Positions 56,433 through 60,403 of a stretch of 64,000 nucleotides of DNA are shown here, piece by piece. Each line of letters opens with the position of its first letter. Positions within the stretch are counted from its first letter, which is position 1. The notes below the pieces were generated by a model. That model made no database searches. It had not been told where the DNA came from and saw only the letters and a program-made list of their open reading frames with translations. Where the stretch lies: the NCBI RefSeq assembly GCF_988243305.1, contig NZ_OZ547136.1. The stretch is one strand, 5' to 3'. The translations under genes and the position numbers were made by a program.

Positions 56433-57027
56433 TCATCCCCCAAAGAAACGTCACGATATTTGGTATTTTCAAAATTCAAAAAGAAAACCCGCAGAGTGGC
56501 AACAGAGATTAAAAAGTTTGAGAAACGCGATCTGGCACAGGCGGTGATTGGTGTTGGAGTGATGGTAGATTTTATCAGCCGGATAATGTCGGTTCTGGCT
56601 GATAGCTGGGGTTGTTGGTGTGGTCTTCCTATTGATGAAAAAACAAGCAATTACTTGGCATATTATCTGTAACACTTTAAAACCGTTAAGAAGATCACAA
56701 TTCATTATGTTTATTATTGTCTGGCCGGAGGGATATTTGTTAAAAAGTGCGCTGTGTGGTGAATCCCCCTGTGCGGTGGGGCGACTGGTGTACATAGCAT
56801 TTATTATGTTATGAGCGAAGCCTACGCGGGTTCAGTGACACCGACTGAATTCACCGGGAGGCACCCGGCACCATGCAACAGACGCAAGTTAGGCTAAGCC
56901 TTATACCCCTGTAAGTTTTTTACAGGGGTTTTTTGTGCACAGAAAACCCCCAGCTAGGCTGTAATGCCGATCAGTTAAGGATCAGTTGACCGATCCAGTG
57001 GCTGTGTAAGAATCCGGAAACGCTCAC

Positions 57028-58132
57028 TTGTTTCCGGATTTTTTTATGCACATTGGACAGGCTCTTGATCTGGTATCCCGTTACGATTCTCTGCGTAACC
57101 CACTGACTTCTCTGGGGGATTACCTCGACCCCGAACTCATCTCTCGTTGCCTTGCCGAATCAGGTACTGTAACGCTACGCAAGCGCCGTCTTCCCCTCGA
57201 AATGATGGTCTGGTGTATTGTTGGCATGGCGCTTGAGCGTAAAGAACCTCTTCACCAGATTGTGAATCGCCTGGACATCATGCTGCCGGGCAATCGCCCC
57301 TTCGTTGCCCCCAGTGCCGTTATTCAGGCCCGCCAGCGCCTGGGAAGTGAGGCTGTCCGCCGCGTGTTCACGAAAACAGCGCAGCTCTGGCATAACGCCA
57401 CGCCGCATCCGCACTGGTGCGGCCTGACCCTGCTGGCCATCGATGGTGTGTTCTGGCGCACACCGGATACACCAGAGAACGATGCAGCCTTCCCCCGCCA
57501 GACACATGCCGGGAACCCGGCGCTCTACCCGCAGGTCAAAATGGTCTGCCAGATGGAACTGACCAGCCATCTGCTGACGGCTGCAGCCTTCGGCACGATG
57601 AAGAACAGCGAAAATGAGCTTGCTGAGCAACTTATAGAACAAACCGGCGATAACACTCTGACGTTAATGGATAAAGGTTATTACTCACTGGGACTGTTAA
57701 ATGCCTGGAGCCTGGCGGGAGAACACCGCCACTGGATGATACCTCTCAGAAAGGGAGCGCAATATGAAGAGATCAGAAAACTGGGTAAAGGCGATCATCT
57801 GGTGAAGCTGAAAACCAGCCCGCAGGCACGAAAAAAGTGGCCGGGACTGGGAAATGAAGTGACAGCCCGCCTGCTGACCGTGACGCGCAAAGGAAAAGTC
57901 TGCCATCTGCTGACGTCGATGACGGACGCCATGCGCTTCCCCGGAGGAGAAATGGCGGATCTGTACAGTCATCGCTGGGAAATCGAACTGGGATACAGGG
58001 AGATAAAACAGACGATGCAACTGAGCAGGCTGACGCTGAGAAGTAAAAAACCGGAGCTTGTGGAGCAAGAGCTGTGGGGTGTCTTACTGGCTTATAATCT
58101 GGTGAGATATCAGATGATTAAAATGGCGGAAC
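57028..58132 (+). pseudogene. IS4 transposase truncated by IS629 insertion
   Basis: ORF 57028..58161 runs into the inserted element at 58133. Confidence 0.8.
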
Positions 58133-58186
58133 TGAACCGCCCCGGGAATCCTGGAGACTAAACTTCCTGAGAAAGAGGTAAACAGG

Positions 58187-58513
58187 ATGACTAAAAATAC
58201 TCGTTTTTCCCCCGAAGTCCGTCAACGGGCAGTCCGTATGGTTCTGGAAAGTCAGAGCGAATATGACTCACAATGGGCGACAATTTGTTCCATTGCTCCA
58301 AAGATTGGCTGTACGCCGGAGACTCTGCGTGTCTGGGTTCGCCAGCATGAGCGGGATACCGGGGGCGGTGATGGAGGGCTCACCACCGCTGAACGTCAGC
58401 GTCTGAAAGAGCTGGAACGTGAAAATCGTGAACTGCGCCGCAGTAACGATATCCTTCGCCAGGCTTCCGCTTATTTTGCGAAGGCGGAGTTCGACCGCCT
58501 CTGGAAAAAATGA
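58187..58513 (+). CDS. IS3-family transposase OrfA (copy 2)
   Basis: Protein identical to 38219..38545. Confidence 0.85.
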
Positions 58514-59400
58514 TGCCACTGCTGGATAAGCTGCGTGAGCAGTACGGGGTCGGACCGCTATGCAGCGAACTGCATATTGCCCCGTCAACGTATTACCACT
58601 GTCAGCAACAGCGACATCATCCGGATAAACGCAGTGCCCGTGCGCAGCGCGATGACTGGCTGAAGAAAGAGATACAGCGCGTATACGATGAAAATCACAA
58701 GGTATACGGTGTGCGTAAAGTCTGGCGTCAGTTGTTACGGGAAGGTATCAGAGTGGCCAGATGCACTGTGGCACGTCTCATGGCGGTTATGGGACTTGCC
58801 GGTGTTCTCCGGGGTAAAAAGGTCCGTACGACCATCAGCCGGAAAGCCGTTGCCGCAGGCGACCGCGTAAACCGTCAGTTCGTGGCAGAACGACCTGACC
58901 AGCTGTGGGTGGCTGATTTTACTTACGTCAGCACATGGCGGGGCTTCGTCTATGTGGCGTTCATCATTGATGTGTTTGCCGGATACATCGTGGGGTGGCG
59001 GGTCTCATCGTCCATGGAAACGACATTCGTGCTGGATGCACTGGAGCAGGCGTTATGGGCCCGTCGACCGTCCGGCACGGTCCATCACAGTGATAAAGGT
59101 TCTCAGTATGTATCGCTGGCCTACACACAGCGGCTTAAGGAAGCCGGATTACTGGCATCAACAGGAAGTACAGGCGACTCGTATGACAACGCGATGGCGG
59201 AGAGCATCAATGGTCTTTACAAAGCGGAGGTAATACACCGTAAGAGCTGGAAAAACCGTGCAGAAGTGGAACTGGCCACACTCACGTGGGTGGACTGGTA
59301 TAACAATCGACGATTGCTGGAAAGGCTGGGCCATACTCCTCCGGCAGAAGCAGAAAAAGCTTATTATGCTTCCATCGGAAACGATGATCTGGCAGCCTGA
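58510..59400 (+). CDS. IS3-family transposase OrfB (copy 2)
   Basis: Protein identical to 38542..39432. Confidence 0.85.
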
Positions 59401-59827
59401 GTTCACAGATAAAACACTCTCCAGGAAACCCGGGGCGGTTCAGAACATCTGAAAGGTTACTGGCCGAATCAACTGAGTTTCTCAGAATCATGTGGAATGG
59501 TGATGAGAATGCTGATGACATTGCAGGGCGCTTCACCGGGACGTATACCGGAGCTGATGCGCGATCTTGCAAGTATGGGACAACTTGTGAAATTACCGAC
59601 AAGAAGGGAAAGGGCCTTCCCGAGAGTGGTAAAGGAGAGGCCCTGGAAATACCCCACAGCCCCGAAAAAGAGCCAGTCAGTTGCTTAACTGACTGGCATT
59701 ACAGCTAGGCTGGGGGTTCCGGAAAGCTTTCAGCTTTGAGCCAGTTATTAAAACCCCTTTTGATTTGTTAAAACACCTTGCGGTCTGGCAACTGCAAGAG
59801 TCAAACAAGAAATCAAAAGGGGTTCAA

Positions 59828-60286
59828 ATGGGGAACGAAAAGAGCTTAGCGCACACCCGATGGAACTGTAAATATCACATAGTTTTTGCGCCAAAATACC
59901 GAAGACAGGTGTTCTACAGAGAGAAGCGTAGAGCAACAGGCAGTATTTTGAGAAAGCTGTGTGAGTGGAAAAGTGTACGGATTCTGGAAGCTGAATGCTG
60001 TGCAGATCATATCCATATGCTTGTGGAGATCCCGCCCAAAATGAGCGTATCCGGCTTTATGGGATATCTGAAAGGGAAAAGCAGTCTGATGCTTTACGAG
60101 CAGTTTGGTGATTTGAAATTCAAATACAGGAACAGGGAGTTCTGGTGCAGGGGGGACTACGTCGATACAGTGGGTAAGAACACGGCGAAGATACAGGATT
60201 ACATAAAGCACCAGCTTGAAGAGGATAAAATGGGAGAGCAGTTATCGATTCCCTGTCCGGGCAGCCCGTTTACGGACCGTAAGTAA
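59828..60286 (+). CDS. tnpA: IS200-family transposase TnpA (HUH/Y1)
   Basis: 152-aa ORF (MGNEKSLAHTRWNCKYHIVFAPKYRR ...); the IS200 left-end palindrome cccccagctaggctggggg is split by the IS4 insertion. Confidence 0.8.
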   Translation: MGNEKSLAHTRWNCKYHIVFAPKYRRQVFYREKRRATGSILRKLCEWKSVRILEAECCADHIHMLVEIPPKMSVSGFMGYLKGKSSLMLYEQFGDLKFKYRNREFWCRGDYVDTVGKNTAKIQDYIKHQLEEDKMGEQLSIPCPGSPFTDRK

Positions 60287-60403
60287 CGAAGTTGGATGCA
60301 AATGTCAGATCGTGTGCGCCTGTTAGGGCGCGGCTGGTAAGAGAGCCTTATAGGCGCATTTGAAAAACCTCCGGCTATGCCGGAGGATATTTATTGCACG
60401 TCG

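Follow-up and report, generated by a model that had tools for sequence, protein, structure and literature searches.

The 64-kb window, that is, the whole stretch of DNA that was analysed, contains near its right end three known E. coli insertion elements nested in one another, an IS629-type element within IS4 within IS200. To the left, the nest is flanked by an STnc100-type sRNA gene (56724-56938, plus strand), identified by a match to Rfam RF02076 of 139.1 bits over the full model (1-206) against a gathering score of 47. The terminator hairpin of this gene at 56905-56934 (ACCCCTGTAA...TTACAGGGG followed by a T-run) is predicted to fold at -9.9 kcal/mol (z -4.4), and IS200 sits directly after it. 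The hairpin itself is not part of IS200; alignment of the IS200 copies revealed that the STnc100 flank is not common to the others, with sequences diverging upstream of TTGTGCAC. To the right lies a LysR-type regulator annotated as hypT (60404-61348, minus strand), recorded in the ORF list and in the PGAP annotation of an identical sequence, whose stop codon is located 8 bp from the right end of IS200. The nest occupies the point at which a genomic island meets hypT in an E. coli chromosome.

IS200 is present as two remnants on the plus strand. The left fragment (56934-56961, IS200 nt 1-28), whose start is uncertain by 1-2 nt, was delimited by aligning six IS200 copies with differing flanks and carries the left arm and loop of the left-end hairpin plus 4 nt from its right arm. 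The right fragment (59702-60395, IS200 nt 18-711) was assigned from the copy alignment, profile and Rfam matches, and folding. Its features include an SD-sequestering stem-loop (59747-59829), an STnc490/art200 region (59696-59819; Rfam RF01405, 120 bits), the tnpA gene and a right-end hairpin at 60368-60386 folding at -10.0 kcal/mol. As the first-pass annotation had proposed, the reading frame at 59828-60286 is the tnpA of this IS200 and encodes a 152-aa IS200/IS605 transposase (NF033573, 141.6 bits, cut-off 55). Its translation carries an HIH motif and the tyrosine of a C-terminal DYIKHQ, which we take to be the catalytic residues of the IS200 HUH/Y1 TnpA. According to the six independent copies aligned with their flanks, the element begins at about 56934 (TGTGCACAG..., with the same uncertainty of 1-2 nt) and ends at 60395 (...GGATATTTATT), giving a restored length of 711 bp. 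IS200 has no terminal inverted repeats, the flanks of these six copies show no target duplication, and subterminal hairpins are present at both ends. The outer span of 56880-60370 initially assigned to the nest needs correcting at both boundaries, which lie 54 bp further right on the left side and 25 bp further right on the right side: bases 56880-56933 represent the 3' end and terminator of the STnc100 gene, and a boundary at 60370 cuts the right-end hairpin, so that the greater part of this hairpin and the final 25 bp of IS200 fall outside. For annotators, this calls for caution, as the terminator beside IS200 belongs to the sRNA gene and not to the insertion element.

The site at which IS200 was split is a genuine hairpin. 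Once restored, nt 12-34 form the structure AACCCCCAGC-TAG-GCTGGGGGTT, for which DNA folding gives -11.7 kcal/mol, whereas this fold is absent from both remnants, which bears out the earlier placement of the IS4 insertion in the left-end hairpin. Our numbering agrees with the published positions, nt 12-34 and nt 69-138, of the hairpins at the IS200 left end, of which the former has been described as a bidirectional terminator (PMC4513863). As the Y1 transposase presumably recognises the left-end hairpin in single-stranded form, disruption of this hairpin is expected, on grounds of the recognition mechanism of the family, to have immobilised the IS200 copy.

IS4, including the IS629-type element, spans 56962-59701 (2740 bp) and is directly abutted at both ends by an exact 11-bp duplication, CAGCTAGGCTG, located at 56951-56961 (IS200 nt 18-28) and 59702-59712, with the element starting as TAATGCCGATCAG... 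at 56962 and ending as ...CTGACTGGCATTA at 59701. Two given positions would share 11 bp by chance with a probability of about 2e-7, and the length of the duplication falls within the range of 10-13 bp given for direct repeats of the IS4 subgroup (PMC2266710). The left part (56962-58132, plus strand, IS4 nt 1-1171) matches an intact IS4 of a related strain exactly and contains the left inverted repeat (56962-56979) as well as the insG transposase gene from its ATG at 57046 to codon 362. The right part (59447-59701, plus strand, IS4 nt 1172-1426) contributes the last 80 insG codons and the right inverted repeat with a subterminal hairpin. The terminal inverted repeats of about 18 bp (TAATGCC...) match at 16 of 18 positions. 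Subtraction of the inner element and one copy of its duplication (2740 - 1310 - 4 = 1426 bp) restores an intact IS4, in line with the length arithmetic of the first-pass annotation, and the restored 1426 bp differ from the K-12 IS4 by five substitutions. Restored insG encodes 442 aa and matches NF033592 with 304.5 bits (cut-off 115) over residues 25-357; the Y-R-E-K signature of DDE transposases is visible in the translation. No further IS4 copies were found within the 64-kb window. In its present state, the window IS4 should be unable to produce a full-length transposase, and its product would retain the DDE/YREK core and lack the C-terminal 80 residues. As the ends of IS4 are intact, the element may still be movable, yet only with a transposase supplied in trans.

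The innermost element (58133-59442, plus strand, 1310 bp) was recognised by its inverted ends and by profile and Rfam matches as a complete IS629-type member of the IS3 family. It is bordered on both sides by the 4-bp duplication GAAC noted before, with the left copy at 58129-58132 (IS4 nt 1168-1171) and the right copy at 59443-59446, and 4 bp lies within the 3-4 bp known for IS629 (PMC3271280). The element ends in 25-bp imperfect inverted repeats of the TG...CA type and encodes orfA (58187-58513) and the DDE-type orfB (58510-59400; NF033516, 314.6 bits), with an ALIL pseudoknot covering the frameshift region (58468-58584; Rfam RF01497, 120 bits); identical copies have been annotated with a programmed frameshift. 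As for the other two elements, the profile score of this family assignment exceeds the curated NCBIfam cut-off. PGAP labels the identical sequence as 'IS629 family' where truncated and as 'IS3 family' where complete. A second copy in the window, about 20 kb away at 38165-39474, is 100% identical over 1310 bp, which indicates recent IS629 activity, and the copy within IS4 is intact and probably active. Full-length 1310-bp matches were obtained in 3,042 genomes.

To order the insertions, we relied on genomes carrying intermediate states at the same site. A survey of 5,426 complete E. coli genomes revealed uninterrupted IS200 at the nest site in 222 genomes and IS200 interrupted by IS4 in 133. 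Removal of 58133-59446 renders the region 56000-61000 identical to E. coli UK_Dog_Liverpool, and when IS4 is also taken out together with 11 bp, the sequence aligns without a break, as a 99.8% match, with strains whose IS200 in this position is uninterrupted; within IS200 itself the difference amounts to one nucleotide. Because these intermediates exist in other genomes, the order IS200, then IS4, then IS629 follows, as had been read from the window alone. The IS4/IS629 junction occurred in none of the 5,426 complete E. coli genomes and was likewise absent from 100,044 species-representative genomes in a scan for the exact junction. Ten matches with 100% coverage were considered as carriers of the same triple nest and rejected, since they consist of IS200 with IS4 and have their IS629 apart from these, in the hypT 5' end. 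Other apparent cases of IS629 within IS4 elsewhere, six further matches and the only 100% match of the junction search, were also rejected, and those inspected turned out to be adjacent elements or insertions of an IS3-family element elsewhere in IS4. The IS629 in the hypT 5' end of the ten matches itself carries a group II intron.

For the oldest step, no IS200-free version of the site was found by joining the two flanks: all genomes with both flanks carry IS200 between them, and matches to the right flank only carry IS200 as well. In strain 219, a CMY-2 insertion has truncated the IS200 at this site. Comparison with copies at other loci is consequently the basis for the first event and for the exact left end of IS200. 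In this first event, an IS200C-like IS200 of 711 bp inserted without duplication directly downstream of the rho-independent terminator of STnc100; the wide distribution of the copy and its divergence of about 2% from other IS200C copies mark this insertion as old. A 1426-bp IS4 then entered the IS200 left-end hairpin at its apex, duplicating 11 bp. Most recently, and only in the lineage of this strain, the IS629-type element entered IS4 at nt 1171 (insG codon 363), duplicating 4 bp.

Among the alternatives, IS629 might have entered IS4 elsewhere, with the resulting 2.7-kb composite subsequently moving into IS200 by means of a transposase acting in trans. Although the intact IS4 ends make such mobilisation mechanistically possible, this order would require the identical 11-bp duplication to have arisen twice at the identical position, as the 133 genomes mentioned above carry IS4 without IS629 in this position, between the same flanks and with zero differences in IS4, and the junction is missing throughout the E. 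coli set. We regard this order as very improbable and consider that the intermediates all but refute it. An exchange between IS4 copies, through homologous recombination or gene conversion, by which an allele already interrupted by IS629 was brought to this position without direct transposition, is similarly hard to credit: IS copies do recombine, and with 64 kb of the genome visible other IS4 copies may exist, but neither the E. coli genomes nor the species representatives contain a donor junction, and neither half of IS4 differs from the IS4 resident in related strains. An assembly artefact, finally, is the least plausible of all, for while insertion elements are a classic cause of misassembly and an identical IS629 copy is found 20 kb from this one, mis-joined repeats would not create a perfect 4-bp target duplication, would not leave IS4 restored to the base by removal of exactly 1310 + 4 bp, and would not account for outer levels that over 100 independent complete assemblies share. 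We are highly confident that three independent transpositions, of IS200, IS4 and IS629, are stacked at the junction of the genomic island and hypT. The three-level nest and the identities of its elements, as first described, are borne out by exact ends, duplications and family matches, and the nest is a genuine record of successive transposition that is ordinary in kind.

The first-pass annotation further regarded the locus as an insertion hotspot, which applies to the entry of IS4 into the IS200 hairpin, as this recurs at a second locus, and does not apply to IS629, for which no recurrence was observed. At this second locus, an IS200 adjacent to glcA in ST131 carries IS4 at the identical hairpin position, and both the IS4 variant (five differences) and the IS200 variant differ from those of the window, so that sequence comparison indicates an independent event. 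Both loci share the same orientation; chance alone would produce this in one case out of two, yet a small possibility of non-independence is left. Overall, the IS200/IS4 junction was detected in about 499 genomes, and IS4 resides in the IS200 left-end hairpin in about 9% of complete E. coli genomes at a minimum of two loci. Mayaux et al. (1984) reportedly gave AAA-N20-TTT as the target consensus of IS4. Comparison of IS4 insertions at ten loci revealed duplications of 11-14 bp, and in eight of the ten the middle of the target lies no more than 1 nt from the centre of a predicted hairpin loop. As IS4 thus generally picks the apex of terminator-like hairpins, the IS200 hairpin can be understood as its natural and recurrent target. 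For IS629, insertion without sequence-specific targets has been reported (PMC3271280), and its entry into IS4 looks like a one-off event in a non-specific target.

IS200 itself shows a related preference. The six copies, located at different loci, all begin at TTGTGCAC, and five of the six follow a hairpin with a T-run, consistent with a published finding that terminators are over-represented immediately upstream of IS200/IS605 elements (bioRxiv 10.1101/2025.07.22.666184). In strain Nissle, moreover, IS200 was received at the hairpin and T-run of an IS4 end. It is therefore conceivable, and we propose it tentatively and with slightly more doubt than conviction, that IS200 and IS4 form a reciprocal 'terminator-seeking' pair, in which IS200 inserts after terminators, its own hairpin acts as a built-in trap for IS4, and the IS4 end in turn receives IS200. 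If general, such mutual targeting would provide a systematic route to mutual inactivation and to clusters of insertion elements at gene ends. In the literature searched, no explicit earlier account of IS4 inside IS200 or of terminator targeting by IS4 was found.

The practical value of the nest is modest. It provides an unambiguous relative chronology of its three elements and points to IS629 as the currently active element in this genome, while the junction of IS4 nt 1171 with IS629 represents a strain-specific marker that could serve lineage typing. It also exemplifies how target preference, namely of IS200 for positions after terminators and of IS4 for hairpin apexes, builds up pile-ups of insertion elements.

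All three elements as well as the phenomenon of nesting are already known, and neither the elements nor the mechanism involved are of a new kind. The outermost element shares with IS200/IS200C a length of about 707-711 bp, tnpA as its only gene, an HUH/Y1 TnpA, the nt 12-34 hairpin, the SD stem-loop, art200 and the right-end hairpin. It differs from the IS200C copies by 12-19 nt (about 2% divergence), by the splitting of its left-end hairpin by IS4, and by four private TnpA residues (T37, D110, C143, D150) at positions that are identical in the five other copies; PGAP names it only 'IS200/IS605 family'. Once IS629 is removed, the window IS4 has the same 1426 bp and the same IS4-subgroup DDE/YREK transposase as the insG-bearing IS4 of E. 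coli K-12, in contrast to which its insG is broken at codon 363 by IS629, rendering the element non-autonomous. The innermost element resembles the IS629/IS1203/IS3411 group in its 1310 bp, TG...CA ends, orfA and orfB with a -1 frameshift region, and ALIL pseudoknot, whereas its identity to the O157:H7 copies labelled IS1203 by PGAP reaches only 96.3%. While its third level, IS629 at IS4 nt 1171, sets the present nest apart from the 5,426 complete genomes, it does not differ in kind from the nested and clustered insertion elements of E. coli and Shigella, in which one element likewise lies inside another, the insertion is harmless to the host, and the duplications give the order of events.

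Reading of the sequence between 56400 and 61000 together with a repeat search placed IS4 at 56962–59701 (starting with TAATGCCGATCAGTTAAGG and finishing with TTAACTGACTGGCATTA), with an exact 11-bp direct repeat, CAGCTAGGCTG, directly outside both ends (56951–56961 and 59702–59712). Inside it lies a 1310-bp IS3-family element at 58133–59442 (TGAACCGCCCCGGGAATCC to GGAAACCCGGGGCGGTTCA), flanked on both sides by the 4-bp duplication GAAC (58129–58132 and 59443–59446). Length arithmetic (2740 − 1310 − 4) gives an IS4 of 1426 bp, and after removal of 58133–59446, window 56000–61000 matches the E. 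coli UK_Dog_Liverpool chromosome at every base. PGAP annotation there lists an intact IS4 transposase gene insG, then IS200/IS605 tnpA, then hypT. In profile searches, the restored 442-aa IS4 transposase matched NF033592 (304.5 bits), orfA and orfB of the inner element both matched NF033516 (orfB with 314.6 bits) and TnpA of IS200 (59828–60286, 152 aa) matched NF033573 (141.6 bits); K-12 IS4 differs from the restored element by 5 substitutions in 1426 bp. Element ends, duplications, base-perfect restoration and family matches thus bear out the three-level nest of the first-pass annotation, including the 11-bp IS4 duplication, the splitting of the IS4 transposase gene by an IS629-type copy with a GAAC duplication and the arithmetic restoring IS4.

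The nested IS3-family element carries the ALIL frameshift pseudoknot of this family (Rfam, 58468–58584) and has identical full-length counterparts in other E. coli. As a truncated sequence identical to it is labelled IS629 family, while O157:H7 copies labelled IS1203 share only 96.3% identity, "IS629-type" seems a fair name. A second copy at 38165–39474 (+ strand) is 100% identical over 1310 bp and is flanked by a 3-bp duplication (TAC), versus 4 bp at the nested copy, a sign of recent IS629 activity in the genome. Of the three elements in the nest, IS629 is the likeliest to be active: its ends, ORFs and frameshift region are intact, and its identical twin lies only 20 kb from it.

State counts among 5,426 complete E. 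coli genomes supplied both intermediates: 222 genomes contain an uninterrupted IS200 between the same flanks (201 by the flank-only query; one such locus, L005, differs by 1 nt within IS200), and 133 contain the STnc100 flank, the IS200 left end and the IS4 junction. These intermediates confirm the nesting logic behind the proposed order of transposition events, with IS200 arriving first, IS4 then entering IS200 and IS629 coming last, into IS4. As the flank-only query found no IS200-free version of the site, we infer the first event from IS200 ends at other loci. The IS4/IS629 junction of the nest occurred in none of the 5,426 genomes and was not found in the species-representative genome set; a single 100% match represented two separate elements side by side. 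Since strains such as 190693, which are 100% identical over the surrounding 17.5 kb (39475–56950), carry IS200::IS4 without IS629, and the junction is absent from both genome sets, this comparison shows that IS629 joined a much older IS200::IS4 allele recently and in this lineage only. It is very unlikely that IS4::IS629 arrived as a unit or was copied in from elsewhere by gene conversion, given that zero-difference IS200::IS4 intermediates exist and that neither genome set contains a donor junction. Misassembly is a very unlikely source of the nest, being unable to yield a perfect 4-bp target duplication plus base-perfect restoration.

The limits of IS200 were determined by removing IS4 and one duplication copy in silico and aligning the result with six differently flanked IS200 copies. 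Similarity began at TTGTGCACAGAAAACC (56933/56934) and ended with CCGGAGGATATTTATT (60395), giving a restored IS200 of 711 bp with nt 1 at 56934; STnc490/art200 lies at 59696–59819 (Rfam). The span given in the first-pass annotation, 56880–60370, started 54 bp too far left and ended 25 bp short, running through the right-end hairpin (60368–60386, −10.0 kcal/mol) and leaving most of it outside. Positions 56880–56933 were rejected as IS200 sequence, as they fall within a full-length match to the STnc100 sRNA at the island end (56724–56938, + strand; Rfam RF02076, 139 bits), including its terminator, a hairpin plus T-run (56905–56934) that directly abuts the IS200 left end. On the basis of these alignments, the outer coordinates of the nest need to be corrected to 56934–60395.

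The proposed insertion hotspot needs a narrower meaning and has to be considered element by element. Five of the six IS200 copies sit directly after a hairpin and T-run, namely the terminators of gnd, guaA, sseA and STnc100 and the end hairpin of an IS4-family element in Nissle; a recent survey reports that terminator-like sequences are most strongly enriched directly upstream of IS200/IS605 elements (bioRxiv 10.1101/2025.07.22.666184). IS4 duplications measured 11–14 bp (ten target sites), with the duplication centre no more than 1 nt from the loop centre of a predicted hairpin at 8 of these sites, several being obvious intrinsic terminators (e.g. at the 3' ends of bamD, eno and adhE). The perfect 10-bp stem at nt 12–34 of the restored IS200, AACCCCCAGC-TAG-GCTGGGGGTT, fits this pattern perfectly, its loop centre coinciding with the duplication centre at position 21.5; IS4 did insert into the left-end hairpin. 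In ST131 strain 4993, an IS200 located downstream of the glcA terminator contains IS4 at exactly this position, with the same duplication; with 5 differences in IS4 and the other sequence variant of IS200, this is, judging from the sequences, an independent event. At that locus (L011, 3501–5120), IS200 breaks off in the first tnpA codons, where a gspK fragment takes over, so a deletion came after IS4 insertion. Altogether, 499 genomes contain the IS200-left-end/IS4 junction. The hotspot therefore holds for IS4 entering the IS200 hairpin, given the second locus and the hairpin-apex pattern, but not for IS629: no recurrence of its insertion in IS4 was seen, the other IS3-family insertion found in IS4 (L003) lies at a different position, and IS629 is reported to lack sequence-specific targets (PMC3271280). 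Nissle harbors the reverse nest (NZ_CP148105.1, 3040205–3041520), in which IS200C lies 36 bp from the right end of an IS4-family element, on the opposite strand directly after the IS4 subterminal hairpin and T-run; insertion into the partner's end hairpin is therefore possible for both IS200 and IS4.

Neither IS200 remnant retains the left-end hairpin: at −2.2 and −2.7 kcal/mol, they fold no better than shuffled sequence does. IS200/IS605 transposases work on single-stranded ends via subterminal hairpins, and with this hairpin split the IS200 of the nest should be immobile. Its TnpA has private residues T37, D110, C143 and D150 at positions invariant or nearly so in five other copies (I, Y, Y with N in one copy, and G), which is consistent with decay and suggests relaxed constraint on an immobilized copy; the same protein is found in strains with a still uninterrupted IS200. 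Because the IS200 terminator normally blocking incoming transcription is destroyed and insG, orfAB and tnpA all point in the same direction (57046–60286), read-through into tnpA is conceivable. The IS4 transposase breaks at codon 363 of 442, where 9 IS629-encoded residues replace the C-terminal 80; the conserved core, including YREK, is kept (profile match up to residue 357). The interrupted protein is probably inactive, as Tn5 transposase, taken as an analogue, needs its C-terminus for dimerization.

Just upstream lies an IS100-type element (IS21 family; 54451–56252, + strand), with istA broken by an internal stop (54991–54993) and istB intact (55470–56252), followed by a DUF3927 gene remnant; with the nest, IS-derived DNA at the island/hypT junction amounts to ~6 kb. 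CRE389 and nine other genomes (L002, 5812–9391) carry IS200::IS4 without the nested IS629 and a separate IS629 in the 5' end of hypT (3-bp duplication TTT); a group II intron (ltrA) has in turn entered this IS629, making another two-level nest ~1.5 kb away. In strain 219 (NZ_CP020514.1), the IS200 at the same locus has lost its first ~77 nt to a CMY-2 beta-lactamase insertion, and the IS200-left-end/IS4 junction survives ~5 kb from it.

All elements of the nest are known and behave as known; only the way in which the left-end hairpin of IS200 recurrently captures IS4, directed by structure, is mildly notable. The 11-bp duplication falls inside the range reported for the IS4 subgroup, 10–13 bp (PMC2266710), the 4-bp duplication inside the 3–4 bp reported for IS629 (PMC3271280), and the restored hairpin occupies exactly the position of the IS200 left-end bidirectional terminator, nt 12–34 (PMC4513863).
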